Positions 23,787-64,000 of a DNA stretch of 64,000 bases are shown here, one piece after another. The position numbers and the translations under genes are program-made. Each line of letters starts with the position of its first letter. Position 1 is the first letter of the stretch. Under the pieces are notes generated by a model that saw only the letters and a program-made list of their open reading frames with translations, was not told the DNA's origin and did no database searches. Origin of the DNA: Escherichia phage ManiMatter_Bas94; sequence record PQ850617.1, one strand, 5' to 3'.

Positions 23787-26700
23787 ATGGCTAACATTAA
23801 ACCGTGGGAAGAAGCTTCCAAAGCTCCTGCGTATCTGAATGCCTCTCCGGAGCAACAGGCTCAAATGAGAGAACAATATAAGGCAGCAGGTGGCTTTATT
23901 CCTGAGGAACAACCAGTAGCACAACCACAACAAGAAGAACGTGGTGTTATAGGTGAGGTTGCTCAAGGTGTGTCAAATGCTCTTCAATCTGGTGGTGCAA
24001 ACATTGCAGCTAGTGCTGCTAAAGGTATTGGTGGTTTAGTTGAGATTGGTGAAGATCTAATTGGAGCACAAACTAGTTATGGTAAGCGTATCCAAGAGAA
24101 CTCTCAGAACCTTCTGAAAGAACGTATGGATAAGATTGAGGATGGGATTGGTAAAACTGCTGGTCAGTATGCTGGCGTTGTTGGTGATATTGGTTTGACA
24201 GTTACTAACCCGTTAGCTGCCGCTGCTATCATCGCAGGTCGTGAGACAGGTCGTGCATATGCAGACCAAACCCCTAAAGAGGGAGAAGACAAGTCTGTTC
24301 TGGATGCAGCCTTAGTTGGTGGTGCTAACTATGCAGCTCAGAGAATTCTTCCGGGTGCTGTTGGTACAGCTGAATCTACACTTGGTCGTATCGGTCAGAA
24401 CGTTGTTACTAACGCAGTGGCTGGTGCTAAAGGCGGTGCTCTTGTAGGTGCTGCTGAAGCTCAGAACAAATATGGTGATGACACAACCTTTGCTAATGTC
24501 TTAGAAGGCGCTATTGAAGAAGGTGCTATTGGTGCTGCATTCGGTGGTGCAGTTGGTGGTGTTCATGGCTTAATTAGCCGTCCAGATTCTGCTGTCTTCA
24601 AGAATACTCCAGAATATGCAAAGACTGACATTGCTGCTGACGATGAGCTGATTCGTAGTGCTAAGACTGTTGATGAACTGAAAGAAGCCTACTCTAAAGC
24701 TGAAACTGCTAACGCCGCTTCCGCTCTTAATCTTCTGGATGAGAATGGATTCCGTATTACTGATGCTGTTGCTTTAGATTCTCCTGCTGCTCAGCGTATT
24801 CTTAATACAGACCAAGCCAGTGCTGAGAAAGCTGCTTCTGCTCAGAAAGAGCATTCTAACATTCCGGGCCTCAATCCTTTGGCTCCTCCTGCTAAGACTC
24901 GTGGTAAAGCATTCGCTGATAACGAGCACAACCAGAAGAAAGCTGTCGCTATGAAAGATGCAATGGCTGACTACACCAAGGATAACACGAAAGTTCTTAC
25001 AGATGTTCTAGATAACCTAGACCGTGAATTAACTGCTTACCGAGCTGCTGATGATTTTACTGGCAATCCACTTGATGTCAAGAATCGCACACAAGCTGAC
25101 CGTGACTTCGTTGATGCTTATAAGACTTTCTATAATGAAGCAAATCGATTCAAAGCTCGTGATGGTGAAGACTTTAACAACTTTGTAGAGAAAGCTACTG
25201 AGCTACGGAAGATGGCTGATAACGTTTCTCCAGAGATGAAGAAAGCTATTAGTGGGTTGAAGAAACTGAAAGGTATGCCTGAAGGTTTTAACCCTATTCA
25301 AGATGCTTATACTCTGAACAATGCAGCTAAGTTCATGAGCAACCAAGACCGTGGTTGGACTTCCCTGACCGATGATGGATTCCGTGAGGCTTCTTCTCCT
25401 AGTCTGGTTATGAACACACTCGGTGCTGCTAAGTATGCTCTGAATCGCTTCTCTTCTCAGCGTGCTCGCTCTCAACGTGTTAAGCAACAAGAAGCTAACA
25501 GCGAAGCTATCCGCTCTCTGGCTCGTGGTGATTTGGAAGTTGCTCGTGCTAAATCTACTGCTGATGAAGCTCGTGCTAAAATGGAAGAAGAACCAGTTGT
25601 TGATGACATTAAATTTAAGACGCAAAATGACGTGGAAACCGAACCGGTTCGGGAGCCTTCTTCTAGTACTGTGACGGAAGAAAATCTTCCTTCTTCCACT
25701 CCTCAAGAAGCCCCTCTTACAGCTCGCGATTTAGTTGCTCAAAGACGTGCAGTTAAACAGGCAGAACAGCGTCGCGCTCAAGAAGAGGCCGCACAGGCTC
25801 CAGAACCCACTGTAGAGGAACCAACGGTTAAAGCTGAGCCATTACCTGCCCGTGCTCCTAAAGCTCCTAAGGAGTCTATACAGGACGTTAAACCGGCAAG
25901 TGGTGTAGAACGTTTAGCTGCCATGTCTAGTGCTGCTCGTCAGGCTACTATAGATCGTGCAGAACGTTTTGCTCGTTCTCTGTACTCTCAGACTGCTAAG
26001 GCTAAGGCCACTGCTGAAAACTTCTTGGCTTACAAGGGAAGTTATAGGGAGTTGATGCGTCGGATTCGTCAGGAAGATAATGCTATCAACACTGAGCGTC
26101 ATGAAGAGATGGCTCGTAATCAGCTAGCTTCTCAGCAAGGTATTGCTACTGCTAAGAACAACACTGTACGAACTAACTTTGCTGAATGGGTTAAGGAACG
26201 TGGTCTGCCAGAAGACATTGCTACTAAGGCATTACGTGCTGAAGAGAAGGGTTTAGGTGGGAACGTGACTAACTTAGATAGTCTGAAACGTCGTGCTGAA
26301 AGGTTGTATCAGAAGCAGCGTGAGGACGAGTTTGATAGACTGTATCAACAGGCTCTGGAAGAGAATAAAGCTTTTGATAAGAAGAATGCTCCTAAACTGG
26401 CTGACCAGAAGAAAGAACTTCAATCTGAGATTGATACTTTGATTGATTCAGAACCTTTACGTCCTGCTCAGAAAGATGCTATGCGTAAACTGATGAATGA
26501 CTTTGTAGATGAGAAGTTTAAATCTTCAGAGAAGGCTGGTAGGGAAGAAGCTTTGGAAGTAGGTCAGATGAAGGATATTTGGGATGGGTTTATTAACACC
26601 TATAACAGAGAAGTGAATGCCTTCAACAAAGCTAACAAGAACTCTCAGTACGAAGCTTTTGCTAAACACATACAGGCTCGTGAAGAACGTCTTGCTACTC

Positions 26701-28094
26701 TGAAAAATAAAGCTCAGGCTCGTGCTCAAGCGAAAGCTACAGCAGAAGCTGAACGTCAGTTACTCGAAGCTATTGCAGCTCAGAAGAGTGAGATTGAGAA
26801 GATGTTTGATGAGTTACCTAAACCTGTCCGCGAGGCTCAGGAAAGCCGTACTCTGAAACAGCTTGCAGCTCACCATGATAAGAACTCCCCTGTTCCTCCA
26901 GAACGTTTCCGTAGTATTATCGAACGTATCCACAACGCCGAGTCAGATTACCTTGATCGTCAGCGTCGTTTAACTGATGCAGAAGAAGATGCTCGTCAGG
27001 CTAAGTGGAACAAAATGTATGAGCAAGCGGAAGAGATGGACCGTAAGTTTGAGATAGACAAAAGGGTTAAGCGCAGTGAAGAGCTTAAAGCGGCTCAGAA
27101 GCGTGAGAATGACCTTATGGCGGTACAACGTCAACGTGACGACATCCATCGTCGCCTGATGCATACTTTGGAGGATAGGGGCATATCTAAAGAGGATGCT
27201 GAAGCATTTGCTGGTTCCTACATGGATAACCGTTATGCACTTCTTGATAAGCCTATGACTCCTACTGAACATCAGAATGCTCGTTCTCGTATTGAGGCTG
27301 ATGTTGAGAAGTTTGCTAAGAAGTACGAATCAATGACTCCTATTGAGAAAGAGATTGTTAAGGTTACTGGAGATACTGAAGGTAAGCTTGATAACTTGGA
27401 TTCGGATACTAGGAAGGCTATTGAAGAGGCTCGGAAGGTAGACTCTGATATTAAGAAACTGCAAGAGGAAGAGATGGAGATGGAGAAGATTCGTTCTGCT
27501 CTGCCTGATGATGAAAGATCTCAAGCAAATTCTGATATCTTGGAAAGCATTAAACAGCAGGAAGAAGCCTTTGCTGATAAAGCAGAGAAAGCTTTCTTGA
27601 ATGGGAAGAGCTTGGATGAGTTGGCTAGTGTGGCTGAAGTTTTAGACAGGGTTCATGGTGCAGACAAGGCTGGTAACAACCGTCGCTTTGTACGTGCATT
27701 GCAGACTGCTGCTGAAAACAAGAAGAAGTATGGTGATAATCCGGTAGCTTGGTTTAGTGCTGATGATTATTCTGCTATTGCTAAACTTGGTGCTTCTTCC
27801 GCAGGTGGTAACAAATCTAGAGCACTGGAGAAAATCTTTGGTTCTACAGCTGAACAAGCTAAGAGTAAGTTGCTTGGCAGGGATGATGTAGCGAAGATGA
27901 GACGTGTAATTGAAGAGAACCCTGATATTAAGATTCCTTCTTACAAGACAACGAATCGTACTGAGTACTTGCAGTTCTTGGAGAAGTTTAATGACGAAGG
28001 GAAGCCGAAGATTAAACGTGGCTCATTGTCAGAGAAGCTTGAACGCAGTAAGCGTCAATCGAGACTCCGTGTAAGAGTTCGATCTAAGGAGTGA
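23787..28094 (+). CDS. Large internal virion / DNA-ejection protein (putative)
   Basis: 1435 aa; N-terminal Gly/Ala-rich glycine-zipper segments followed by long charged coiled-coil region. Confidence 0.5.
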   Translation: MANIKPWEEASKAPAYLNASPEQQAQMREQYKAAGGFIPEEQPVAQPQQEERGVIGEVAQGVSNALQSGGANIAASAAKGIGGLVEIGEDLIGAQTSYGKRIQENSQNLLKERMDKIEDGIGKTAGQYAGVVGDIGLTVTNPLAAAAIIAGRETGRAYADQTPKEGEDKSVLDAALVGGANYAAQRILPGAVGTAESTLGRIGQNVVTNAVAGAKGGALVGAAEAQNKYGDDTTFANVLEGAIEEGAIGAAFGGAVGGVHGLISRPDSAVFKNTPEYAKTDIAADDELIRSAKTVDELKEAYSKAETANAASALNLLDENGFRITDAVALDSPAAQRILNTDQASAEKAASAQKEHSNIPGLNPLAPPAKTRGKAFADNEHNQKKAVAMKDAMADYTKDNTKVLTDVLDNLDRELTAYRAADDFTGNPLDVKNRTQADRDFVDAYKTFYNEANRFKARDGEDFNNFVEKATELRKMADNVSPEMKKAISGLKKLKGMPEGFNPIQDAYTLNNAAKFMSNQDRGWTSLTDDGFREASSPSLVMNTLGAAKYALNRFSSQRARSQRVKQQEANSEAIRSLARGDLEVARAKSTADEARAKMEEEPVVDDIKFKTQNDVETEPVREPSSSTVTEENLPSSTPQEAPLTARDLVAQRRAVKQAEQRRAQEEAAQAPEPTVEEPTVKAEPLPARAPKAPKESIQDVKPASGVERLAAMSSAARQATIDRAERFARSLYSQTAKAKATAENFLAYKGSYRELMRRIRQEDNAINTERHEEMARNQLASQQGIATAKNNTVRTNFAEWVKERGLPEDIATKALRAEEKGLGGNVTNLDSLKRRAERLYQKQREDEFDRLYQQALEENKAFDKKNAPKLADQKKELQSEIDTLIDSEPLRPAQKDAMRKLMNDFVDEKFKSSEKAGREEALEVGQMKDIWDGFINTYNREVNAFNKANKNSQYEAFAKHIQAREERLATLKNKAQARAQAKATAEAERQLLEAIAAQKSEIEKMFDELPKPVREAQESRTLKQLAAHHDKNSPVPPERFRSIIERIHNAESDYLDRQRRLTDAEEDARQAKWNKMYEQAEEMDRKFEIDKRVKRSEELKAAQKRENDLMAVQRQRDDIHRRLMHTLEDRGISKEDAEAFAGSYMDNRYALLDKPMTPTEHQNARSRIEADVEKFAKKYESMTPIEKEIVKVTGDTEGKLDNLDSDTRKAIEEARKVDSDIKKLQEEEMEMEKIRSALPDDERSQANSDILESIKQQEEAFADKAEKAFLNGKSLDELASVAEVLDRVHGADKAGNNRRFVRALQTAAENKKKYGDNPVAWFSADDYSAIAKLGASSAGGNKSRALEKIFGSTAEQAKSKLLGRDDVAKMRRVIEENPDIKIPSYKTTNRTEYLQFLEKFNDEGKPKIKRGSLSEKLERSKRQSRLRVRVRSKE

Positions 28095-28314: not shown

Positions 28315-28542
28315 CTAGATTAAATCGTAATATTGAATAATGTCAGAGAGTTTGAACTCTCGAATCTCGTCTTTCTCTACATCTATCGCTGTCATAATCC
28401 AACAAGGTTTGCCACAGTTATGAAAACGGGAGCTAGCAACGGAGGTTCGGAGTGGAATAACGGACCGGTCAGCAACCTCGCCTCTCCAATTGCGATAGCG
28501 AAAGCGAAGCACTTGTTGCGTAGATTTTTGATCATCACTCAT
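28315..28542 (-). CDS. Hypothetical protein
   Basis: 75 aa from ATG 28542 (AAAGGAA RBS), immediately after HNH stop; track ORF 28315..28683 trimmed. Confidence 0.35.
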   Translation of the reverse strand: MSDDQKSTQQVLRFRYRNWRGEVADRSVIPLRTSVASSRFHNCGKPCWIMTAIDVEKDEIREFKLSDIIQYYDLI

Positions 28543-28936
28543 TTCCTTTTTTGAATTGTTTTCTTGCATCATTCTCTTCTTTTGTTTTAATCTTATGACA
28601 AGGATCTTTACACAGAACCTGAAAACCTTCTTTCTCACACAGAGCACGAGAGATGATTTCATCCCAAGTAGCTTCATGGTCAAGAGGTACTATAGGCTCT
28701 ATGTGGTCAATAGCCATATCTTTTACAGGGTGGTCAGAACCACACATGGCACACTTAAAGTGCATTGCCAGTCTACCTGTCTTTGGATTAATCTTCTGTT
28801 CTGTCTTGGCTTCTGCTAGTGCATCGAACATGGGCTTCCACTTTCTAGTCAGAGAACGAATCCCTGACTTGATGAAAGAGTTGTAACGAGCTTCAGTCCA
28901 AGTTCCACTACATCGTGTCTTCTCAGACTTCGCCAT
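28535..28936 (-). CDS. HNH endonuclease
   Basis: 133 aa; CAMCG...AIDHIEPIV...CKDPCHKIK matches HNH Cys/His motif. Confidence 0.7.
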   Translation of the reverse strand: MAKSEKTRCSGTWTEARYNSFIKSGIRSLTRKWKPMFDALAEAKTEQKINPKTGRLAMHFKCAMCGSDHPVKDMAIDHIEPIVPLDHEATWDEIISRALCEKEGFQVLCKDPCHKIKTKEENDARKQFKKGNE

Positions 28937-34540: not shown

Positions 34541-35243
34541 TCATATATTCGACAAGAGCCGCAACACTCTCGCCCGTTCTCTTATGAACTGCTACATGTC
34601 GCCATGTAGGATAGACTATATCATCACCCTCTGTCGAGGGGTTGGGCGCTTCCACCGGCATTAGCTTCCGGTGTACTCCTTTCGGATAGTCGTTGCACCT
34701 TCAAGTATTCTATAGCTGTTTCTAATCGGCTAACATCATCTTTCAATAGCCCTAAAGCTCTGTTGCAGTTGTGACACAACAGACCGCGTATTACTCCGGA
34801 TTCATGGCAATGATCAACCACAAGTTTAATTCTGTGATGTGTTGCCATTGCAAACCCTTCGCCCTTACAGATAGCACACTTCCCATCCTGATCAGCGTAC
34901 ATCTTTTCGTAATCGCTGGCTGTGATTCCATAAATTCGTTTGAAGTAGGAATTTCTCCAGCCCCTATCTTTGCATTCATCAGAGCAATAATGTTCAGATG
35001 GTGCATTTGGTTGAAAATCTTTTGAGCAATTACGACAAGGTTTTGGATTGAACCGACCTTGAGGGTATTTACTTGCCTCAGCAGTCTGTTCTTCTTTAGT
35101 TTTAGTTACAGTTGTATATTCCATAAGCACCTCCATGTTGAGTTGCTATAGAATACTTGCTTGGCTCAGGATTGTCTACTAGAGAGTTTCCCTGAGTTCA
35201 CCCAATTTAATCGACGAGATTACTCTCGAAGTATCCATTTACG
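34541..35243 (-). mobile_element. Intervening sequence in polymerase gene (probable group I intron carrying an HNH homing endonuclease)
   Basis: About 700 nt between polymerase motif B halves (exon 1 ends ...PTRDNAKTFI-stop); contains free-standing HNH ORF with own start; exon 2 has no in-frame AUG before conserved residues. Confidence 0.55.
34624..35136 (-). CDS. HNH homing endonuclease (intron-encoded, putative)
   Basis: 170 aa; DHCHESGVIRGLLCHNCNRALG HNH motif plus Cys-rich zinc-binding segments. Confidence 0.75.
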   Translation of the reverse strand: MEVLMEYTTVTKTKEEQTAEASKYPQGRFNPKPCRNCSKDFQPNAPSEHYCSDECKDRGWRNSYFKRIYGITASDYEKMYADQDGKCAICKGEGFAMATHHRIKLVVDHCHESGVIRGLLCHNCNRALGLLKDDVSRLETAIEYLKVQRLSERSTPEANAGGSAQPLDRG

Positions 35244-37361: not shown

Positions 37362-37679
37362 TTACGATGAGCTTAAAGCTCCTTTGCGTGCTCCAGCTGC
37401 CTTCCCAGTTCGATCTCCACTTTTGCCGCCAGCTGAACGATTTCCGCTGACTGTTTCAACACGTAAGTTGCTTGACGCATTAGAGCCTCCTGACTTGATA
37501 GCTCGTTTGTGTCCAACGTCTTTACCTCTGACAGCAGCTTTTCCATCGCGCTTTTCAACGATGCGACGTGCACGGTGGCGCTGAGCATCTCCGCTCTTGC
37601 TACCAATTCCCGTTTCACCCCTTGCGATGGCGGTACGTCTTTCTTGTGCATAATCTCTCTTTCCTACATGGTCTGCCAT
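37362..37679 (-). CDS. Gly/Arg/Lys-rich disordered protein (KGG-repeat stress-protein-like)
   Basis: 105 aa; strong AAGGAG RBS 8 nt upstream; composition like YciG/KGG stress proteins; own promoter motif and terminator. Confidence 0.45.
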   Translation of the reverse strand: MADHVGKRDYAQERRTAIARGETGIGSKSGDAQRHRARRIVEKRDGKAAVRGKDVGHKRAIKSGGSNASSNLRVETVSGNRSAGGKSGDRTGKAAGARKGALSSS

Positions 37680-53858: not shown

Positions 53859-54665
53859 TTATGCTACCTGAAGGCGTTTAATCTGCTGGTCCGCTTCTTT
53901 AACGTTATTACCGTTAATGATTTCATGAAGCTTCTCAATCGGAAGGCGAGAGTGCAATGCCATCAGAGTGGACATGTCACACTGCTGAACAACCTTGTCA
54001 ACCTGATCATAAACAAACTTACGGTTTTCACGATCGCTAATCCAGAAGTTAGACAGGGAACGATATTCAATACCATAGTCCTTGTAGCGGATTGCAGATG
54101 CTTTACCGTAGAGTTCTTTACGGCGAGTGTCTTTATCCATAATAACTGCTGGGAGGGATAGGAAGTAGTCACACAGCACACCCAGCATCATCTGAGTTTG
54201 CAGGGTGATATCCAAAGCACCAACTACGCCAAGATGTACGTGACCACCGGCAGTACGAAGCCCCTTATTTTGAGAAGTCGGGGATGGGTTCTTCTGACCA
54301 GTGAAAGCGTTGAAATCAGGAGTACATCCAAAGATGAACGCTGATTCATTGAAAGTCTTCATCTCTTCTTCAGTGAAGATGTGAGAGCTAACACCCGGAG
54401 CTGTTTCCATGTCCAGTTTGTTCAGGACATTATTGGTGAGATCGATACCACGTTGCATGTTGTCATTAAACGCTTCAAAACCACTCTGTGGGTCAATATC
54501 AAACTCAGCCAGTACGTTGTCCTCTTGAAGACGAACATCCTTAGCCAGAGCGATCTTATCGTCCTTAGAACAACCTAACAGACCAGCTACAGAGGTGATG
54601 ATTCCTTTGCTGGTACGAACGAACATTTCCGGATCCGATCCTATTAAGAATTTGCGCTTAGTCAT
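53859..54665 (-). CDS. Second COOH-NH2 ligase-like protein (putative)
   Basis: 268 aa; N-terminal FLIGSDPEMFV; assignment from memory of phage ligase families, unverified. Confidence 0.4.
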   Translation of the reverse strand: MTKRKFLIGSDPEMFVRTSKGIITSVAGLLGCSKDDKIALAKDVRLQEDNVLAEFDIDPQSGFEAFNDNMQRGIDLTNNVLNKLDMETAPGVSSHIFTEEEMKTFNESAFIFGCTPDFNAFTGQKNPSPTSQNKGLRTAGGHVHLGVVGALDITLQTQMMLGVLCDYFLSLPAVIMDKDTRRKELYGKASAIRYKDYGIEYRSLSNFWISDRENRKFVYDQVDKVVQQCDMSTLMALHSRLPIEKLHEIINGNNVKEADQQIKRLQVA

Positions 54666-55629
54666 TGTAATACTCCACTAGTTCAGAAAAGAGAGATGAG
54701 ATTGTGTTACCGATTTCTTCAGGATTAAGACCAGAATCTATTCCAGTACGCTGAATTATTCGTGCTGTAAAGTTTTGTACTGTAATGTTTTCCAACTTAT
54801 TGTCTATTGCTTCACGTTTGTGACCATAACAGTTGGACCAGAGTTTTAACCACTCTGACATTGTTTCATACTCATCCGGATCTTGATCTTTAGCACGAGC
54901 AAATCTTCGTAAGACATCTGTGTTGTGGTTACGAACATAACCATTCTCGTTGTCACCAACACCGAAGGGGTTTTGAACCCATACTTGCTTCGTGTATTCA
55001 TCAGAGTCAACAACCAAAGGAAGGAATGCTGCTGCTGACATATTGTTGTCAATAACAACAGACGTGCTTTCACTACTCCCATTGGAAGCTCCTCGTTGAG
55101 ACCACCTACCAAAGAAGTCACGACCCAACCCAGCTAACAATAGAGCGATGCCAATGCGTTTACGCTTCAGCCACTCTTCCCTGTCTTCAATTCCTTCTGC
55201 TAGGAAATCCATTCCACGATACTGCCCTTCCAAAATGCTACGGAAGAGCATAAGTCCTGTGAAGATTTGATCTGCTGGATGCTCACGGAGGTTGACAGCT
55301 ACGCTATTCGCTGAAGTGATTGTGAATACATCGCGATAGCAAGACATGGAGTTCATAATATCTGCTGTTTCAACCAAGTTCTTTTCAATATAAGATGCAT
55401 CATGACCGTGAAAAGAGTGAGTCCAGTAATTCAGCATCTCCAGTTGCAAGTTGATATCACGGTTGAAGCGTCTATAACGCCCCTCTTCCATGATAACTTC
55501 GCCATTAATATCGCTTACGCATTGGCCTTGCATGTAGTTGTGAATACCGAAGCACCCACGACCTAAGAACTTCTGTTCCCCTAAATCTTGTTGAAGATTC
55601 AGAGGTACGATCGTTGTGGAGATTGACAT
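54658..55629 (-). CDS. Hypothetical protein (cluster member)
   Basis: 323-aa ORF overlapping neighbours. Confidence 0.4.
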   Translation of the reverse strand: MSISTTIVPLNLQQDLGEQKFLGRGCFGIHNYMQGQCVSDINGEVIMEEGRYRRFNRDINLQLEMLNYWTHSFHGHDASYIEKNLVETADIMNSMSCYRDVFTITSANSVAVNLREHPADQIFTGLMLFRSILEGQYRGMDFLAEGIEDREEWLKRKRIGIALLLAGLGRDFFGRWSQRGASNGSSESTSVVIDNNMSAAAFLPLVVDSDEYTKQVWVQNPFGVGDNENGYVRNHNTDVLRRFARAKDQDPDEYETMSEWLKLWSNCYGHKREAIDNKLENITVQNFTARIIQRTGIDSGLNPEEIGNTISSLFSELVEYYND

Positions 55630-55639
55630 AACTAACCTT

Positions 55640-56836
55640 TTATTTTCCTAAAAATAATCCGCTCATAATACCATCCCACTCAGAGGATGGGATCACTGAA
55701 TACTCCGAACTTTGGTCCAGAGTTCCACTACTAAATCGCTGAACAATGTTATAGATGTTGAACAGGTCTTTAGCCTCAGTACGGATACCGTAGACTAATT
55801 TATCAGATGTTCTTTCATCTTTAGATACCCGACGAGCAAAATTAACCAGAAGGTTGTCACATTTAAGCGTTTCTGACCCACTCTCTACCAAATCAGGGTG
55901 CATCACAGGCAAGAACATCGAGTTATTGACTCGCAACTCTGCTGTTTCGTCATTCTCATAATGAATCCACTTAAAGTCTTCATCACGGAAGTGACCACAA
56001 CCATCTCTGTACGACTGCTGACGCCAAGGCACTTGAAATGCTTCAGCGTATTTATCAGCCATGCCGACTGTAAACAGCGACGCTGGGAAGATACAAGCAT
56101 CCCAATCATTACCAACCAGAGTTGCTTTAGTTTCCCCCAAGAGGTTAGTGTAAGTGCTAACCATTCGGGAGTAAATGTAAGCCTGAAGAATTGTCCAGCC
56201 TTCAATCAACCATTTATGAAGGAAGGTTTCAACTTGACTCTCTTCGTCTTCGCAATAGAAGGTTCGGTCTAGCATTAAATAGAACAGACAACGATCAGCA
56301 GGGATGTTCTCAGTTGCTACACCCATAAAACCTTTCTCGTGCCAGCGTAAACAGGAGGGACGATCTTTGTCCACAAATGCTTCCATAGCTTCCAGTACAG
56401 CACGAGGTGAGGTTTGGTATTCAGGGTTTTTACTATTCCAACGATCAATGTTGTTCTTAGGAGGTGTGTCTTCATCTTCATACGAACACCAACTTAAAGC
56501 TTCGGATACATGCTCTGCGTCATGCCAACGTCTAAAACCTAACATCTTCATGTGAGTTCCGGAGTTCCAGATATGCTTGATTTTACACATATCCATCTCT
56601 CGGCTTAACAGGAACTCTTCCCCATCAGCACTACGAACGTTAGCTTCTTCATGCCACACTCGAACGTGCATATTCCACCCATGAGTTGCCTCATACATAT
56701 TAGGGTCGAAGTATTCATATTCGTCGTCATCTTCATCAACGCCACCATTATAGTTGCGAAGCTGAAGGAATCCATAACAAGGAGGGTTAACCGTTAAAAC
56801 ATTACCTTCAGTATCTTCTAATGTTACTGGAAACAT
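55640..56836 (-). CDS. Hypothetical protein (cluster member)
   Basis: 398-aa ORF, acidic, Trp-rich. Confidence 0.4.
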   Translation of the reverse strand: MFPVTLEDTEGNVLTVNPPCYGFLQLRNYNGGVDEDDDEYEYFDPNMYEATHGWNMHVRVWHEEANVRSADGEEFLLSREMDMCKIKHIWNSGTHMKMLGFRRWHDAEHVSEALSWCSYEDEDTPPKNNIDRWNSKNPEYQTSPRAVLEAMEAFVDKDRPSCLRWHEKGFMGVATENIPADRCLFYLMLDRTFYCEDEESQVETFLHKWLIEGWTILQAYIYSRMVSTYTNLLGETKATLVGNDWDACIFPASLFTVGMADKYAEAFQVPWRQQSYRDGCGHFRDEDFKWIHYENDETAELRVNNSMFLPVMHPDLVESGSETLKCDNLLVNFARRVSKDERTSDKLVYGIRTEAKDLFNIYNIVQRFSSGTLDQSSEYSVIPSSEWDGIMSGLFLGK

Positions 56837-56847
56837 TATACCAACCT

Positions 56848-57210
56848 CTATTGGTTTTTAATCAACTCAATAGACTTACGGATATAAAGAATATCTCGGA
56901 AGTTTCTGTAGTTGTTCATAAATTGATGCTTCTGGAACTCAGCTTCTTCCAGAGCTTTCTTTGCGTCTGCGTAGTTTTTACGGGCAAGACATACAACCCG
57001 CTCTGGTAACATGTTTGCACGATGGATTAGATACTTGTGAGCTTTCATATTGCTTTGCTCACGAGCAATCTTACCTTTAGCAACTTTGATACCATTTGCA
57101 ATCCAAGCAAGTTCTTGCTCAAGCTCATCGTTGGACATTCCACCGAGGTTTGATGCAACCTTGTTCAGAGTTTCAATATTAACGTTGCCCTTAATGGGAC
57201 GTGTATTCAT
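56848..57210 (-). CDS. Hypothetical protein
   Basis: 120-aa ORF. Confidence 0.4.
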   Translation of the reverse strand: MNTRPIKGNVNIETLNKVASNLGGMSNDELEQELAWIANGIKVAKGKIAREQSNMKAHKYLIHRANMLPERVVCLARKNYADAKKALEEAEFQKHQFMNNYRNFRDILYIRKSIELIKNQ

Positions 57211-57212
57211 AC

Positions 57213-57365
57213 TTACTCCTGTTGTTTACACTCGTCAATAACCCACTGATAAGTGGATTGCCCAGAAAAGAAACACTGAATAAATCCAGATGTTCTCTGC
57301 GTTACCAGTGCTAGTGCACATATCACTACCGCTGCTGCTAGCAGTTTCATATCTAATTTAGACAT
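57213..57365 (-). CDS. Small secreted Cys-containing protein (50 aa)
   Basis: Manual translation MSKLDMKLLAAAVVICALALV... signal-like N-terminus. Confidence 0.3.
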   Translation of the reverse strand: MSKLDMKLLAAAVVICALALVTQRTSGFIQCFFSGQSTYQWVIDECKQQE

Positions 57366-57475
57366 ATTTCCTCTCTTTGAATTTAAAAAAGGACTCTCCG
57401 AAAAGAGCCAAACTTTAAATCCAAAAAAAGATATTACCCAATATCTGTGGATAACCTGCTCTTAAAATATCTATC

Positions 57476-57596
57476 CGACGGATGTTTGAGGAACACTCCT
57501 CGCCCTAGCATCGGCCCCATACGGGAAATAAATTAAGATTAGGTTAGTTGAGTCAGAATAACTCACATAGCCTTCTCCGGAAGAAGGCTATAGATG
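57476..57596 (-). repeat. Intergenic cassette, copy A (related to 60371-60485)
   Basis: Shares blocks cggatgtt(t/c)gag, c(g/t)ccctagc, gaggaacac, ctcacatagcc(t/c)tct + hairpin + ggctata with copy B; both immediately 3' of a - strand gene stop. Confidence 0.5.
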
Positions 57597-57830
57597 TTAC
57601 TCGCCTTTCTTAGCACGATCTTTGGCAGTTTTGCCAGTGCGGATGCGGTGTGAAACGTTAACCAGAGTGCCACCATCAACTACGGTAACGCTCTTGTTTT
57701 TAGCCAGATCAAACACAGCCTTCTCTGTGCCACCCAAGCGAATTTGCTTAGGTTCACTGAAGGTTTGGGTTGATTTAGATTGGAACTGGAACGGTTGACG
57801 GATTGCATCAATTGCACTTACTTTAGACAT
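57597..57830 (-). CDS. Hypothetical protein
   Basis: 77-aa ORF, AAGGA RBS. Confidence 0.4.
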   Translation of the reverse strand: MSKVSAIDAIRQPFQFQSKSTQTFSEPKQIRLGGTEKAVFDLAKNKSVTVVDGGTLVNVSHRIRTGKTAKDRAKKGE

Positions 57831-57848
57831 AGGGGAAATTCCTTAAAA

Positions 57849-57880
57849 AATCATGGCTGCGTAGAGGGAATTCCCTACGC
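57849..57880 (-). terminator. Stem-loop terminator
   Basis: GCGTAGGGAATTCCCTCTACGC palindrome followed on - strand by ...GATTTTTTAAGG. Confidence 0.45.
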
Positions 57881-57902
57881 AAATTAGGCCGCCTAAAAAG
57901 AG

Positions 57903-57920
57903 GCGTCATAGTACTAAAAG
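57903..57920. repeat. 18-bp motif GCGTCATAGTACTAAAAG (copy 1 of 2)
   Basis: Identical 18-mer at 63104-63121; both between a - strand stop codon and a terminator hairpin. Confidence 0.5.
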
Positions 57921-58056
57921 GAGGAGAGAAGAGGGCTTATTTAGCTACCTTTTTCTGTCCGTTTACGAACCAGATAATTGTTCCATCAGGTTGTCGTTGA
58001 CCAAAGCCTTTCTGGTTAATCATATCGTCATAAGAATATGCTTTACGTCTCATCTG

Positions 58057-58302
58057 TCACTCCTGAACAACTGACATACGAATCATTTCTACCGGAGTGT
58101 CACCTTTCATAACACCCAGCACACCAGTCAGAAGATTAACTGTAGTAATCCAGTCTTTTTCTACAGAGATTTTGCTGGATACATTGGCAACACGCATATG
58201 ATACTGAGGTGATGCTGTTCCTCTCTGAACTACGAAAGGGTTTCCGGGAATAATTGTAGCCAGCGAAACTGTGTTATCTTTAATCTTTGGGATGATTTTC
58301 AT
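58057..58302 (-). CDS. Hypothetical protein
   Basis: 81-aa ORF. Confidence 0.35.
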   Translation of the reverse strand: MKIIPKIKDNTVSLATIIPGNPFVVQRGTASPQYHMRVANVSSKISVEKDWITTVNLLTGVLGVMKGDTPVEMIRMSVVQE

Positions 58303-58310
58303 CTTGATTC

Positions 58311-58622
58311 CTATTTAAGTTTAAGGCTAACATTAAGGTGCATACACGCCCTGTTCTGTACAGCGGCATAACTTCTACCGAGCATGTCTGCCATTCTCTG
58401 AATAGGCATGAACCCAGCATTACGAATAACAAACTGATCTTCTTCTTCCGTCCACTTGACACGTAGAGAAGCCCTTGATATACCAAACTTGGTACAGGCT
58501 GTGTTAACAGCATTCTCTGTAACATTCATAATCTGAGCAACTTCTTGAACCGAATACTCTTTGATTAGTCTCCGAAGATTTTCAATCTGCATCGGAGTCC
58601 ATATAGTTCTTCGTGCTTTCAT
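58311..58622 (-). CDS. Hypothetical protein (possible DNA-binding, two W/E-rich helical repeats)
   Basis: 103 aa; repeats WTPMQIENLRRL... / WTEEEDQFVIRN... Confidence 0.35.
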   Translation of the reverse strand: MKARRTIWTPMQIENLRRLIKEYSVQEVAQIMNVTENAVNTACTKFGISRASLRVKWTEEEDQFVIRNAGFMPIQRMADMLGRSYAAVQNRACMHLNVSLKLK

Positions 58623-58917
58623 ATACCCTCCAATTAAACATTTATATAAGACTTGCTTAGATAAAGATTCAATAAAATAGGGGGAGGGGACGAATCCTCC
58701 CTTATCCTATTAATTAGTATTGCATGTAAGATCTAACAATCGGTTTCCTTTGTAGGAATAAGCGTTATGCTCATCCAGCACTAAACTCCCGCCCCCTTAG
58801 TGGGCTGGGTTATTAAAGGGTAACGCCCTTATGGGCTAGTTACGTGAATGTTAGTTTGATAGGAGATCTGAAGTCCTATCTCAAAGGACTCTCGTAAGAA
58901 TCCTTCACGATAAGCTC

Positions 58918-59205
58918 TTAATATACTAATCCGTGTAAGAGAAACACTCTATTAGTTAACTCTGCTTTAGCTCTGTAATAAGCCTTAGAACCTAACAGGC
59001 GGCTCTTAACAAAGAACTTGATGTCATTGCTTACGTCTTGTATTAAACGCTCCTGTACAGCTTCTGAGGAGCTATTAATTGAATCAATTAACACCTTTGT
59101 AGATGTGTAATTCACATCACCACTCCTTACCGGTTGTAGTTGTAGAGCCACCACACCACTGTGCATCAGATAAGGTTTTAGTCTCCTCATCCATTGCTGC
59201 ACCAT
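58918..59205 (-). CDS. Hypothetical protein
   Basis: 95-aa ORF; 5' end overlaps previous gene, true start uncertain. Confidence 0.3.
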   Translation of the reverse strand: MVQQWMRRLKPYLMHSGVVALQLQPVRSGDVNYTSTKVLIDSINSSSEAVQERLIQDVSNDIKFFVKSRLLGSKAYYRAKAELTNRVFLLHGLVY

Positions 59206-59398
59206 TCATGCATGAGATACCATTGTAACGCATATCAATTTCGCCAGAAGGAACCTTCTCACCTTTATGCCAGCGAGATACACAAATACCTTCCACTGCT
59301 ACTGCACACCATCCATCAGGACGGCTCTGTACGCAGCCTGTAAGGGCCACACAGACAATGAAGATACAGATTAAGGATATTACACCACTCCAACTCAT
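59117..59398 (-). CDS. Small Cys-rich lipoprotein
   Basis: Start set to ATG 59398 (GGAGGTG RBS); signal MSWSGVISLICIFIVCVALTGC with lipobox LTGC; mature part about 70 aa with 5 Cys. Confidence 0.5.
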   Translation of the reverse strand: MSWSGVISLICIFIVCVALTGCVQSRPDGWCAVAVEGICVSRWHKGEKVPSGEIDMRYNGISCMNGAAMDEETKTLSDAQWCGGSTTTTGKEW

Positions 59399-59421
59399 AA
59401 CACACCTCCAAGAGCTTCTAG

Positions 59422-59500
59422 TGAGGATGACAGGATTTGAACCTGCATACTCCAATTACTTCTTTAACGACCGCTTAGAAGGCGGGGAAGATACATCCTC
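59422..59500 (-). tRNA. tRNA-like element, possibly atypical tRNA-Arg(UCU)
   Basis: Perfect 7-bp acceptor stem GAGGATG/CATCCTC, canonical T-arm GCAGG-TTCAAAT-CCTGT, hairpin CCGC-CUUCUAA-GCGG with anticodon-loop-like UCU; no canonical D-arm found, 23-nt extra segment. Confidence 0.45.
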
Positions 59501-59541
59501 ATTAAGAATTCTCGTTAAAGCTGGTTTAAATCACATCAACC

Positions 59542-59793
59542 TCAAGCACAAGCAGGGAGAGTGATGATTTTATACTTGCCATCAAATTCTCCAAACAAAC
59601 CTAAGAATGTAGGACTATAAGTACCAGTACAAACAAACTCATCAAACAGTTCGTTATAGCTAGGCTTAATCTTCCAAGCCCATACATAACCCATCTTGTC
59701 AATTGCAATGTAACGAGTGTTTAGAGGAACAGTCATCATCACACCATCAACTTCGACCACTTTAGTGATTGGTGCAGCTTGGAAGTTTTTCAT
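59542..59793 (-). CDS. Hypothetical protein
   Basis: 83-aa ORF. Confidence 0.4.
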   Translation of the reverse strand: MKNFQAAPITKVVEVDGVMMTVPLNTRYIAIDKMGYVWAWKIKPSYNELFDEFVCTGTYSPTFLGLFGEFDGKYKIITLPACA

Positions 59794-59845
59794 ACTTTAC
59801 CTTTAATTAAAACAACAAAGGCCACCCAATCGGGCAGCCTTTCTT

Positions 59846-60055
59846 TTATTGACTCACACCACGAATCAAATGATTCTGTAGCATTTCATCTTCTGCATTA
59901 TAAAGGAATGCGAACATCAATTCCTTAGCCACATCTCTTGAGCAGTTAAGACACTTAGAGATTTGAGCTAGTTGCATATTACGTTCGGTGTGCTCCACTA
60001 AGGCAATGCGAATGATCTCTCGCATACCTATTACATGGGCTGTTTTAACCGGCAT
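59846..60055 (-). CDS. Small helical protein (possible regulator)
   Basis: Start at internal ATG 60055 overlapping stop of a 46-aa upstream ORF; track ORF 59846..60097 trimmed. Confidence 0.3.
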   Translation of the reverse strand: MPVKTAHVIGMREIIRIALVEHTERNMQLAQISKCLNCSRDVAKELMFAFLYNAEDEMLQNHLIRGVSQ

Positions 60056-60370
60056 AGGTCCAATTACCTTGCTTGTCACGGATAGTGGACATTGCATGAA
60101 CCCAGAAGCCTTCCAGTTTCAGAGCACCATTAGTTACTGCATCCATACGTTCAGGGCGGTTCATACGTTTGGTTGATACTTTCATACCTATCTCTCTTTG
60201 TTAGTGAAGGCATTATTGCCAGTTGATATAGCAGATAGCCCTATTAAAAAGGACTACCGACTATCTAAACTGGTGAAGACTCCCTACCCCTAGGAAGTCT
60301 CCTGAATCCCAAACCAATATGTACCCCTACATATCGGAAAGTCTACCGAAAATTAACAGGTTTTAGTCTA

Positions 60371-60485
60371 ACACCGGATGTTCGAGCAAGCTCTCCCTAG
60401 CGGTGTGGCATATGCCTGATTTAATAAGTTAATGAGGAACACCCTCACATAGCCCTCTGATAAGCACAAGGGCTATAAGTCGGTG
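60371..60485 (-). repeat. Intergenic cassette, copy B (related to 57476-57596)
   Basis: Same ordered sequence blocks and hairpin ATAGCCCT...AGGGCTAT as copy A, immediately 3' of gene 60486-60782. Confidence 0.5.
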
Positions 60486-60782
60486 TTACTTGTCGGCTTC
60501 AATCTCTTGATGCTTAGCTATAGCTACTCGCAAGTCCTCATTAGCACGAGTAAGGCGTAATACTTCATGGTTGAGATTCTGAAGACGCTTGTTTCTATCT
60601 TCAACTTGCGTAATAAGATCATTAAGAGTTGCTTTAACTTTCTCATTATACATCTCATCCACTCGGACTAGAGATTTGTACATTCTCTCCCAGCTTGCTG
60701 CTTTGTTCCTAAGGATAATAAATCCTATAACGCTGATAGTTAAACAGCTTACAAAAAGGAATTTATATATCTCTAAAGTCAT
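60486..60782 (-). CDS. Membrane-anchored coiled-coil protein
   Basis: 98 aa; N-terminal TM FLFVSCLTISVIGFIIL then heptad-rich helix. Confidence 0.4.
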   Translation of the reverse strand: MTLEIYKFLFVSCLTISVIGFIILRNKAASWERMYKSLVRVDEMYNEKVKATLNDLITQVEDRNKRLQNLNHEVLRLTRANEDLRVAIAKHQEIEADK

Positions 60783-60981
60783 ATTATTTACCCTTTATCA
60801 GAGATTAAAAGTAATATTATTTAAGTAAGTTATATTTAGTAAACTTATTTTCTAAGAAATTTTCAAAGGGTCTATATACAGAGCATTACCCATAGTCCCA
60901 GAACACTACCATCTTTTTCAATAAATTTACTAAGTGGTTGGTTTATAAAGGAATTTAGTTTGTCAAATCTGGCACTAGTGA

Positions 60982-61371
60982 TTATTCCCTAGAGCTATTA
61001 TCGAACACTAAATCACCACAATACATAGGATTGGCATACCATTTTGGCACCCCTTCGCTCTTACTCTGAAAGTAAGTCCCACTGTACAGCGGAACATAAT
61101 TCTTCTTAAGGGCACGTTTAGCAAGTCTCTCGCTTTCTCCAATGGCTTGCTTAGTCATCGGATTTTTATCACGAATCAGCTTTACATAACGTTTATAAGG
61201 TTTCTCCTGTTTTAATAGTACCGGAATCCACTCAAACTGGTTCTTTTGTCTTATCACCTGTTCAGCGGTCAGTTTTCGTTGGGCCATTCTATTTATCACG
61301 GTATCCGCAACCATAGCCTTACATGCGGTTGGCTGATTCCCTGCCTCATAATAAATAGTCAATGTCAACAT
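60982..61371 (-). CDS. Cell-wall hydrolase (SleB/CwlJ-like, putative)
   Basis: 129 aa; LTIYYEAGNQPTACKAMVADTVINRM resembles Hydrolase_2 N-terminal motif. Confidence 0.45.
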   Translation of the reverse strand: MLTLTIYYEAGNQPTACKAMVADTVINRMAQRKLTAEQVIRQKNQFEWIPVLLKQEKPYKRYVKLIRDKNPMTKQAIGESERLAKRALKKNYVPLYSGTYFQSKSEGVPKWYANPMYCGDLVFDNSSRE

Positions 61372-61625
61372 TAGCTGGGCCGTTGTTATCAGAACTTGCT
61401 ACCTCCTCTCAGGATAAAACACCTTTCATGTATGCCTTACTCGAAGCCCTCCTTGTGGCTTTTAGTATGGATTGCTTAGCCTTATTCTTAGCTTCTTCTG
61501 TCATTCCATCAAAAACACCGAGCTTAGTTAGCTCCTTACTAGGAGGCTTATAGGAAGGGTTTAAAGCATTAGATAAATTATGACCATAGGCATGACCACG
61601 GCACAATAAAGAAGAAAGATTAAGC

Positions 61626-61991
61626 CTATGGATTTACACATTGACCGTTACCGGATGCGATTTCATTCATTGACTCATCAAACAAGGTTAGGGATGAGCG
61701 CATCAAGTGATCGACCGTGATTTGTTTACCGGTAGTTTCATTTACCAGTTGAATAGTTTTATCATATGATTGCACATGATCGAAATCATTTACATGCAAA
61801 ATAATAACTTTAGGTGACTTTTTACCAGTCGAATAGTTTTCTATCAAATAGGTGCACTGTAAACCTTCCACCGTATCAGGGGAAAATGTTGCAGCCTTTA
61901 CACTACCCATAGCCGATAGGAGAACGCCCAGCAGTAGAACGACCAGAAAAAAACCTACAACCATTTTAATGATGAATTTAATAAACCACAT
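61626..61991 (-). CDS. Membrane/secreted protein
   Basis: 121 aa; N-terminal hydrophobic MVVGFFLVVLLLGVLLSAMGSVKA. Confidence 0.35.
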   Translation of the reverse strand: MWFIKFIIKMVVGFFLVVLLLGVLLSAMGSVKAATFSPDTVEGLQCTYLIENYSTGKKSPKVIILHVNDFDHVQSYDKTIQLVNETTGKQITVDHLMRSSLTLFDESMNEIASGNGQCVNP

Positions 61992-62093
61992 AACTATAAA
62001 CCTTTTAATCAGAGGATGTAAGAATAAAGCATATCAGCGACGAATAACGCCACTGTAACGACGAATAAGCAACGCCAGAAAAATCATTAAGCA

Positions 62094-62339
62094 TCATTTT
62101 AATCCGTGATTCAGTAGGTTCGCCAGTGATAGCCCACCGTCAAAATAAATTGAACGGAAGTCATCGCGGGTAATTTCAATCCCTACAGCAGATAACCAAT
62201 CTTTGGCCTTTTTAAAATCCATGACGCAGAAAGTAACGGTCGGGATTATTACATCACCAGCTTGCAAGCTAAACGCAATAAAAGTATCACACACAAAACA
62301 AGAAAAGCCGCTAGACAATTTAACTTCTTTGATAGCCAT
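62094..62339 (-). CDS. Hypothetical protein
   Basis: 81-aa ORF. Confidence 0.3.
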   Translation of the reverse strand: MAIKEVKLSSGFSCFVCDTFIAFSLQAGDVIIPTVTFCVMDFKKAKDWLSAVGIEITRDDFRSIYFDGGLSLANLLNHGLK

Positions 62340-62353
62340 AATTCTAACCCTTA

Positions 62354-62842
62354 TTATTTAGCACTGATGCAATTAGCTAGGTTGATGTGTACGGTATAAA
62401 CCGCATTATTCTCACTATTGTAAACCGTGGTGGCAAGCATTGATTCGTTTATCGGGCCATAACTGACTAGATTTGTAACAGCTTTCGCATGTTTGTAACG
62501 TTGTACAGTGCCAAATGTAACTAGTTCGGGATCGTTATCAGTGCGCTTTAATAGCAAATCATCATTGCCCTGATTATCTAGTGTTTTGGTACTAACGACC
62601 AGACCATCACGGGAAACGTTACTAAATTTAACCTTTAAGACGATTTGATTGGTGTCACTATCCGCACCGTTACAGATTAACCATTTGTTAGGTGCATCCT
62701 TCACGAACAAACTAGCGGCATTATTAGCAGAAGCAGAACTAGCGATAGCGTTGTCAGAAAAAGAAGTTACCAGTGCACTGACACCGATGGCTGTAACCAG
62801 TGCATAACTTGCCAGATTAATAGTCTGCATTACTTTCGCCAT
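62354..62842 (-). CDS. Secreted protein with signal peptide
   Basis: 162 aa; signal MAKVMQTINLASYALVTAIGVSALVTSFSDNAIA, two Cys in mature part. Confidence 0.45.
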   Translation of the reverse strand: MAKVMQTINLASYALVTAIGVSALVTSFSDNAIASSASANNAASLFVKDAPNKWLICNGADSDTNQIVLKVKFSNVSRDGLVVSTKTLDNQGNDDLLLKRTDNDPELVTFGTVQRYKHAKAVTNLVSYGPINESMLATTVYNSENNAVYTVHINLANCISAK

Positions 62843-63103
62843 TTTTGCTACCCCTTAGATAGAATCAATTAACTATTGCCACTTCTATAATACAAAGACG
62901 GTATTCAAGGTTACTACTCATACTTATACCTCCTGTTTTACGGGCATAAAAAAGCCCCAGCCGTAGCCGGGGCAAACCTGAAAGCAACGCATGACCGTTG
63001 CTATAAATACACTCGCAAATGCACTTACAGCAACGCAAAAAGCCGCTCAAAGGCGGCTATGTGGAAGCTTCAAATGGGGAGAGGGCACGACGCGGCAGAA
63101 AGA

Positions 63104-63121
63104 GCGTCATAGTACTAAAAG
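63104..63121. repeat. 18-bp motif GCGTCATAGTACTAAAAG (copy 2 of 2)
   Basis: Identical to 57903-57920; followed on - strand by hairpin AGCCGCC-TTTGAG-CGGCT + TTTTTGCG. Confidence 0.5.
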
Positions 63122-63138
63122 AGGGGGCTGCATTCCTA

Positions 63139-63582
63139 CTACTTAACCCTTGCTTCTTTGATGGGGTCAATATATTTTTCAACTCCCCACTTATGTTTGC
63201 TGTCTGCGTAGAATACATCAGGTGCGCATTGGCTTGTTTTAGGGAAGGCTTGCGGATCTTTGGTGCTCCCTTTAAACTTCTGTTTACCACGGGTGCGACC
63301 ATTACAGAAGATTTCTAGTTTCTTCTCCTCTTCTGTTTTAGCTCCCCCGCTCTTTAATAGTGAACGTTTATGATCAGCTAACAGCAACGCATCAGCACGA
63401 TGGGTACGATGGCCTACACGCTTGGGCACACTAGAAGGAATATGAGATTCAGCCTCAGCCCTTGCAGCACGACGCTTTAAACTACGCTTGCTAACATGAT
63501 TAGTTGCCTTTGGTTTCTCTTTCTCCAATTCAGAAATAGAAAAACAACGCCCGCCCTTCATGCTGATTTTAGATTTAGCCAC
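63139..63582 (-). CDS. Basic hypothetical protein
   Basis: 147-aa Lys/Arg-rich ORF. Confidence 0.35.
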   Translation of the reverse strand: MAKSKISMKGGRCFSISELEKEKPKATNHVSKRSLKRRAARAEAESHIPSSVPKRVGHRTHRADALLLADHKRSLLKSGGAKTEEEKKLEIFCNGRTRGKQKFKGSTKDPQAFPKTSQCAPDVFYADSKHKWGVEKYIDPIKEARVK

Positions 63583-63651
63583 TATCTTATTCCTTTCAGT
63601 GATAAGTTATATCGGGCAAGCCCATCAAGGCGATAGGCTTGAACAAATAAC

Positions 63652-63861
63652 TCAACCAAGTAAACCAAATGATTTCCAACTACGCAGTAAGATCGTACCA
63701 TCATCCATAGTTACGCATAATTTTAGTAGTCGCTTACTGGTACTGCTCACCGTTGTGATTCGTCCGGTTGTACATTTACCTTTATTGCTATAAAGATATA
63801 TAACACGATGGCCTAACAAACGAGATGGCGCTTTCTTAAATTCTGAAATGTTAGTGATCAT
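63652..63861 (-). CDS. Hypothetical protein
   Basis: 69-aa ORF. Confidence 0.3.
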   Translation of the reverse strand: MITNISEFKKAPSRLLGHRVIYLYSNKGKCTTGRITTVSSTSKRLLKLCVTMDDGTILLRSWKSFGLLG

Positions 63862-64000
63862 TATCCATATACCTTAACATGATTGATTCGACGTGAATGA
63901 TGATAAGAAGACTCAACAGCCATTGCCTTTAATTCTTCTTTTCGTTGGTTAGTGTGTACAATATCCCAATGATTATGATCGTGTTGGCGCTGTAATATCT

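Follow-up and report, generated by a model that had tools for sequence, protein, structure and literature searches.

The 64,000-nucleotide stretch of Escherichia phage ManiMatter_Bas94 analysed here (PQ850617.1; the whole stretch is referred to as the window) comes from a phiEco32-like kuravirus of the subfamily Gordonclarkvirinae and carries an 18-bp repeat whose conserved core is identical to the nick motif of the Pseudomonas putida phage tf. We interpret the repeat as the sequence recognised by a nicking system specific for both site and strand, a reading to which we assign a probability of about 0.65, and the packaged DNA of this phage probably contains three nicks of the tf type. The reading is built on the identity of the motif, its statistics, its conservation amongst relatives and the relatedness of the phage to tf; the occurrence of cleavage, the position of the cut and its timing are what we infer by analogy with tf.

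The repeat GCGTCATAGTACTAAAAG, read on the plus strand, is present in two exact copies at 57903-57920 and 63104-63121, as reported in a preliminary description of this DNA. When up to three mismatches are allowed the window contains three matches against 0.05 expected, and none of 100 shuffled sequences gave three. The third match (three mismatches), at 25660-25677, is a true copy of the functional core. Besides the third copy, the preliminary description had missed the strand of the core: the conserved part of the repeat, of about 12 bases, is the minus-strand sequence A-[G/C]-TACT-[A/G]-TGAC-G. The extended 12-mer AGTACTRTGACG has three exact matches in the window (0.00 expected) and no further site with up to one mismatch. 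The degenerate nine-mer TACTRTGMC likewise occurs three times, each site being exact to the tf consensus 5'-TACTRTGMC-3'. All three copies are on the sense (non-template) strand of the local transcription unit. The sites are the following:

Site A, 25665..25676, plus strand: AGTACTGTGACG in the late open reading frame (ORF) 23787-28094; predicted nick 25670/25671.
Site B, 57904..57915, minus strand: 12-mer AGTACTATGACG inside the 18-mer 57903-57920, exact; predicted nick 57910/57909 by analogy with tf TACT/RTGAC.
Site C, 63105..63116, minus strand: 12-mer AGTACTATGACG inside the 18-mer 63104-63121, exact; predicted nick 63111/63110.

Phage T5 has been known since the 1960s to carry fixed nicks in its DNA, and phiKMV-like and tf-like phages were added later. 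Mapping in tf placed 14 nicks on a single strand, with the consensus 5'-TACT/RTGMC-3'; each is found in more than 90% of the molecules and all are sealed by T4 DNA ligase (PMC3517423). They are annotated as sci1-14 in the GenBank record of tf. In LUZ24, PaP3 and phiMR299-2 the main variant of the nick motif is TACTATGAC (PMC3517423). Nanopore sequencing of phage Rembedalsseter detected 13 strand-specific breaks with the motif WACTRTGAC, which is enriched in 61 related Pseudomonas phages (Rembedalsseter included) with a mean of nine copies (PMC11780129). The kuravirus core TACTRTGAC agrees with the tf nick consensus at nine of nine positions and also fits WACTRTGAC. The base following the nine-mer is G at all sites of the kuravirus group, at 12 of the 14 tf sites and at 12 of the 13 sites of Salmonella phage 7-11.

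The region shares 97% identity with Escherichia phage Bas92 and 88-93% with SU10, EcoN5, KBNP1711 and other phiEco32-like phages. Sites B and C are found at orthologous positions in phiEco32, SU10, Bas92, EcoN5, KBNP1711, EP335, SU7 and Bas86, which in phiEco32 means between genes 94 and 93 (site B) and between genes 120 and 119 (site C). Over nine genomes of three genera the sole substitution in the nine-base core TACTRTGAC is A/G at the R position, where G is found at site C of phiEco32 and at the sites of KBNP1711 and EP335. In an alignment of eight genomes at site C (alignment A2) A[G/C]TACT[A/G]TGACG forms an invariant island amid diverged flanks. The genus Suseptimavirus (SU7, Bas86) is the most divergent, with a flanking protein only about 79% identical; there the flanks have diverged, yet TACTATGACGC is exact at sites B and C. 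The immediate neighbours of the motif, namely the upstream pyrimidine tract, the small hairpin with a GACGC arm and the large hairpin of site B, are conserved inconsistently. The pyrimidine tract, which appears as AGGAGG on the plus strand, is missing at site C of SU7, and SU7, Bas86 and KBNP1711 have lost an 8-bp palindrome, TAGTACTA. The base preceding TACT is G at all three Kuravirus sites and C at all three Suseptimavirus sites; in Nieuwekanaalvirus it is C, except at site C of EP335, which has a kuravirus-like flank. A scan of IMG/VR with the exact pattern returned only three kuravirus contigs and single chance matches, and so added no diversity to the comparison.

Site A lies within a 1435-codon late ORF, the homologue of phi32_26, and encodes Ser-Thr-Val-Thr. 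It is kept, all four wobble positions included, in SU10, SU7 and ECBP2, in a stretch with an average column identity of 69% (alignment A1). In phiEco32 (77,554 bp) it is located at 27941 on the plus strand, the two minus-strand sites being at 63062 and 70584, and the same three sites, and no others, are found across 5001-77554 of that genome. Since site A lies in a coding region, on the strand opposite to the other two copies, and keeps its wobble positions across genera, the constraint acts on nucleotides rather than on protein. Such a copy also argues against an element confined to untranslated regions at the ends of early transcripts.

Two of the relatives show rearrangements at the sites. 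In EcoN5 a tandem duplication of about 1.5 kb comprises the gp89-gp92 block including site B (6429-6439 and 7947-7957), so that the early region of this phage has three minus-strand copies. At site C of EP335 (about 14754-14800) the upstream sequence is unrelated to the other genomes and a different gene, ORF118, abuts the site (alignment A2); homology with the other genomes returns within about 10 bases of the motif. This mosaic breakpoint at the predicted nick site may mark a recombination hot spot. The start points of GenBank kuravirus records near site C were also inspected, and none coincides with the predicted nick.

Whole arrays of the motif are present in two other phages. In Salmonella phage 7-11 (NC_015938, whole genome), which has 41 ORFs in common with phiEco32, the minus strand has 12 copies of TACTRTGMC and the plus strand a single one, where about 1.2 would be expected on each and 100 simulations gave four at most. 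In an unbiased ranking of the nine-mers of this genome ACTACTGTG and CTACTGTGA are the most over-represented (14 against 0.2-0.3 expected, one on the other strand). The copies are denser toward the early right end, at 83.7-88.0 kb. Cronobacter phage GAP52 (NC_019402) has a one-base variant, TACGGTGAC, with eight minus-strand copies and one plus-strand copy (0.2 expected), and a single canonical TACTATGAC on the minus strand, giving a total of 9:1 minus to plus. The flank consensus ac-TAC[T/G]RTGAC-g is common to 7-11, GAP52, SU7 and KBNP1711. Common to 7-11, GAP52 and the kuraviruses is also the distribution, with minus-strand copies denser toward the early end and a lone plus-strand copy in the late region, and nearly all copies of 7-11 and GAP52 are on the sense strand.

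Strand-biased enrichment of this kind, seen in 7-11 and GAP52, is typical of nick motifs and is what co-evolution of an enzyme and its sites would produce, and it suggests that the DNA of 7-11 is nicked; in GAP52 the TACGGTGAC variant suggests an altered specificity at position 4, adjacent to the putative cut. The two arrays are apparently newly described, and no published report of nicking in 7-11 was found. Most copies in 7-11, GAP52 and tf fall within genes or at their beginnings. At sci1, sci4 and sci11 of tf and at 43741 in 7-11 the downstream gene has its annotated start codon in the RTG of the motif, and the survey of 2025 also found nick motifs to be common at gene starts.

Relatedness to tf extends to the core genes. 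About 20 tf ORFs have homologues both in the window and in 7-11, with 25-57% identity. They include the terminase, portal, scaffold, capsid and tail proteins, a 5'-3' exonuclease and a ligase/amidotransferase cluster and, for replication, the primase/helicase (47% identity) and both parts of the DNA polymerase. These common core proteins, together with the motif arrays in relatives, make a shared, co-evolving recognition system plausible. The most conserved of the tf-shared proteins, ahead of primase/helicase and DNA polymerase, is a protein of 105 amino acids (phrog_4590, homologue of phi32_58) encoded on the minus strand at 37362-37679, which is 57% identical to tf_29 and was considered amongst the nickase candidates.

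By analogy with tf, a phage-encoded sequence- and strand-specific activity would recognise about 12 bp and in late infection would cut one strand between TACT and RTGAC, leaving a ligatable nick with 3'-OH and 5'-P ends in the virion DNA. Of the three predicted nicks, the early region would carry two, on the minus strand (57910/57909 and 63111/63110), and a late gene the third, on the plus strand (25670/25671). They would be present in packaged DNA and be repaired after entry; the nicks of the phiKMV-like phage phikF77 are repaired after entry and are back late in infection (cited in PMC3517423). Placement on the non-template strand of all three sites in the window, and of nearly all copies in 7-11 and GAP52, may be due to selection that keeps the template strand free of nicks. 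Amongst the three functions offered by the preliminary description, RNA processing signal, protein binding site and promoter, the second comes closest, in the form of a recognition site for a nicking activity, while the promoter is unsupported. A nick system of the tf type in kuraviruses has apparently not been described previously.

Several observations weigh against such a system. The bare nine-mer is not enriched in the window (three copies against about 1.9-2 expected), compared to 9-14 copies in tf-like phages. The core is split between the strands, two minus and one plus, both in the window and in phiEco32, whereas the tf nicks are all on one strand. The A-G and A-C flanks are mostly, but not strictly, lineage-specific, EP335 having both types. 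No nicking enzyme has yet been assigned to the tf-type motif in any phage (PMC11780129). Genes for an endonuclease VII-like protein (34624-35136) and for an HNH protein (28535-28936) are present in the window, for neither of which a tf homologue was detected, and for the T7 endonuclease I-like protein common to tf and 7-11 no convincing homologue is present in the window (E = 0.046, wrong strand). In Aeromonas phage BUCT695 (Grimontviridae) the 45 kb examined, from the early/middle region, show no enrichment, which means that the system is not shared by the entire wider group. In the papers searched no report was found that ties phiEco32, kuraviruses, Gordonclarkvirinae or GAP52 to nicks. Finally, the position of all three sites on the sense strand would also suit a role in RNA.

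The surroundings of the sites are relevant to the alternatives. In the phiEco32-like group the structural (late) genes are read rightward and the middle and early genes leftward, the early ones by host sigma70 RNA polymerase from right-end promoters (PMC8948821; PMC4281155). Sites B and C are therefore part of the early operon, where the RNA-sense strand is the minus strand. Each copy had been placed by the preliminary description between a minus-strand stop codon and a terminator hairpin, and this arrangement is confirmed by the ORF ends and hairpins located at both sites. At site B the stop codon 57937-57939 of the minus-strand ORF 57937-58053 is followed by the motif and then by a hairpin at 57882-57857. 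At site C the stop codon 63139-63141 of the minus-strand ORF 63139-63582 is followed by the motif and then by hairpins at 63058-63041 and 62973-62954. The structures are:

57905-57890, minus strand: small hairpin at site B, whose 5' arm uses part of the motif (GACGC).
57857..57882, minus strand: terminator-like hairpin 3' of site B, from terminator scan and fold; this large hairpin is missing at site B of SU7.
63110-63087, minus strand: small hairpin overlapping the motif of site C, from the fold; lost in KBNP1711.
63041..63058, minus strand: first terminator-like hairpin 3' of site C, from the terminator scan.
62954..62973, minus strand: second, strong terminator-like hairpin 3' of site C, with eight pairs, seven of them G-C, followed by TTTTTT.

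The last of these is kept in five of the six aligned Kuravirus and Nieuwekanaalvirus genomes, and has diverged in KBNP1711 and in the Suseptimavirus pair. The position of the two copies, likened earlier to a 3' untranslated region, is thus real at both sites but probably incidental, as the copies of relatives are mostly in genes or at gene starts; the intervals between stop codons and terminators were probably merely available non-coding space.

Other features of the same neighbourhoods are as follows. Terminator-like hairpins are over-represented at 54000-64000 (16 against 6.9 expected), which suggests a segmented early operon. The ORF just upstream of site C (63139-63582, minus strand; phi32_120 homologue, phrog_11641) encodes a very basic protein of 147 amino acids without Pfam match. 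Its Arg-rich stretch, KRSLKRRAARAEAE, presumably resembles the arginine-rich motifs of N type. Near site A a perfect 14-bp palindrome, CCGAACCGGTTCGG, is found at 25639-25652, 13 bases upstream of the site and within the late ORF, and is also kept in SU10, SU7 and ECBP2; in addition, the inverted repeat TTCTTC...GAAGAA brackets the site.

The least improbable of the other explanations, in itself unlikely, is that the motif is a double-stranded DNA binding site for a phage or host protein which does not nick and uses the sites as replication, packaging or regulatory landmarks, the tf nick being a lineage-specific by-product. Only three copies per genome, a nine-mer that is not enriched and strong conservation of the copies would suit such a site, and between sites B and C there is a gene for a helix-turn-helix regulator that has a sigma-70 region 4-like match. 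However, the asymmetry of the motif and the loss of TAGTACTA in three of the relatives argue against a dimeric operator, and the identity with a directly mapped nick motif renders a separate function unnecessary.

Improbable as well is a more specific form of the nicking hypothesis, in which a minimal three-site system of tf type would have been placed for a function, the nicks, each on the non-template strand, marking stages of DNA entry or of early transcription, or else acting as hot spots of recombination at the borders of exchangeable early-gene cassettes. Two of the sites immediately precede the first clusters of terminators in the early operon, which in phiEco32 lie about 7 and 14.5 kb in from the early (right) end, and the hot-spot option is hinted at by the mosaic breakpoint of EP335 at the motif.

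No more probable than this is a cis element in RNA, i.e. a cleavage or processing site, or a regulator binding site, on the sense transcripts upstream of early terminators. It would account for the sense orientation of three of three window sites and of nearly all sites in 7-11 and GAP52, for the location of sites B and C between stop codon and hairpins, and for the use of RTG as start codon in some tf and 7-11 copies. Against it, two of the mapped tf nicks are on the antisense strand of late genes, which indicates that this family of motifs acts on DNA. Moreover, no Rfam 15 match overlaps site B or C at E-values up to 10, folding z-scores are unremarkable (-0.3 to -1.7), the adjacent small hairpin is lost in KBNP1711 and site A has no terminator context.

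Much less likely is antitermination at a nut-like site, where a boxA-like CGCTCTT and a hairpin would permit read-through of the terminators, perhaps with the aid of the basic protein encoded upstream of site C. Site C does read GACGCTCTTTCTG, followed by a hairpin and then by terminators, and the upstream protein of 147 amino acids is very basic and Arg-rich; we take these features to resemble boxA and N of lambda. The CGCTCTT is not conserved, being replaced by CGCCTCTT at site B, GACGGAAGAA at site A and GACGTTTCTC at site C of KBNP1711; the conserved block is TACTRTGACG rather than the boxA-like part, and the protein has no Pfam match. Sites of the lambda type would have a conserved CGCTCTTA-like boxA and a boxB hairpin, both of which vary or are missing between sites and genomes.

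As remote as a nut-like site is a chance match or a functionless relic of an intergenic duplication. The tandem duplication of EcoN5 shows that such events are possible in the region, but with 0.05 matches expected, and three copies that persist across three genera amid flanks which have diverged or been replaced, this explanation is already contradicted by the conservation data.

The least credible explanation is a promoter, either on the plus strand for a single-subunit RNA polymerase whose gene would lie outside the window, as the preliminary description had considered, or on the minus strand with TACTAT as -10 element for sigma70 or the phage sigma factor gp36: a loose plus-strand likeness to CACTAAAGGGAGA and the key A2 and T6 of the -10 hexamer in TACTAT face the facts that phiEco32-like phages do not encode their own RNA polymerase (PMC4281155), that the core is on the opposite strand, that no plus-strand ORFs follow downstream and that the third copy is in the middle of a late gene, on the other strand. 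The run of the plus strand into AGGAGG- or AGGGGG-like sequence, noted earlier, does exist; it is complementary to the pyrimidine tract, and site C of SU7 does not keep it. For sigma70, neither TACTAT nor CATAGT as -10 element has, at any site, a -35 box 16-18 bp upstream, and the promoter scan flagged neither site B nor site C. The phiEco32-like phages use host RNA polymerase with sigma70 and with gp36 (PMC4281155; PMC8948821), whose promoters have tAATGTAtA as their sole element, located 6-8 bp before the start of transcription (PMC8948821); by eye, neither strand of the motif fits this element.

Further candidate identities were considered and rejected. The late promoter of 7-11, GTAAtg-N16-aCTA, has no GTAATG in the 15 bases upstream of the 7-11 sites, an interval that stops short of the box, which would lie further upstream; most 7-11 sites are also inside early or middle genes. 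A small ORF starting at the motif-internal ATG (17-29 codons) has no Shine-Dalgarno sequence and is not conserved in length or frame. A LexA box is matched only by half in TACTGT, with no CAGTA partner. With a T7-type primase site, which we take to be GTC, as origin of the breaks, the primer start would presumably be off the mapped nick, and the tf nicks are ligatable.

A second strand-specific nine-mer is present in the window, ATACCAGAG on the plus strand, which is CTCTGGTAT on the minus strand, with eight copies and none on the other strand against 0.65 expected (31629, 31841, 36911, 37822, 40330, 45698, 49456 and 51946). The CTCTGGTAT copies are on the sense strand of middle genes, without conservation of the flanks. 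As they are in two reading frames and seven genes, they are not a protein motif. Six of the eight are kept in phiEco32, which has in addition one plus-strand copy in the late region, and no enrichment is seen in 7-11, GAP52 or tf.

The role of fixed nicks, and the enzyme responsible at the tf-type motif, form a 50-year-old puzzle. If nick sites of this type are indeed present in kuraviruses, a simple Escherichia coli model would become available, with only three sites, two of them in freely mutable non-coding DNA, and with isolates in the BASEL collection that grow on engineered E. coli K-12 strains. Natural variants of specificity, such as T versus G at position 4 (7-11 versus GAP52) and the A-G versus A-C flank, could allow the nickase to be identified by covariation. 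Nicks at known positions also affect nanopore sequencing, the calling of termini and the handling of DNA, in a group of phages which is used in therapy studies. To a specialist in nicks the explanation will not be surprising, and its value is that of a tractable system for an old question.

Comparison with known systems gives the following picture. The promoters of T3-, T7- and SP6-type single-subunit RNA polymerases show only a loose likeness to the plus strand (ACTAAAG/GGAG), and differ in that such a polymerase is absent from the phage group, the core is read on the opposite strand and the GGAG is not conserved. With lambda-type nut sites the repeat shares the location upstream of early-operon terminators and, at site C, CGCTCTT followed by a hairpin; unlike them, the boxA-like bases and the hairpin are not conserved and a third copy is inside a late gene. 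Phage T5 (R/GCGCRGG) and the phiKMV-like phages (CGACxxxxxCCTA/CTCCGG) display the same phenomenon, fixed nicks in one strand of the virion DNA (PMC3517423), with nick sequences and lineages unrelated to the kuravirus motif. The arrays of 7-11 and GAP52 differ from the kuravirus sites in having 9-13 copies, mostly intragenic, and in GAP52 a G at position 4. From tf and Rembedalsseter the kuraviruses differ in the number of copies (three versus 9-14) and in a recognition apparently extended by the upstream A-[G/C]; from tf also in having one copy on the opposite physical strand, so that all copies are sense, and in that the nicks are here predicted from sequence. With the nick sites of tf/LUZ24-like phages and Rembedalsseter they share the identical nine-base core with the same degenerate position and a preference for G as the next base, the asymmetry of the motif, a higher density of copies in the early region, and common replication and structural genes.

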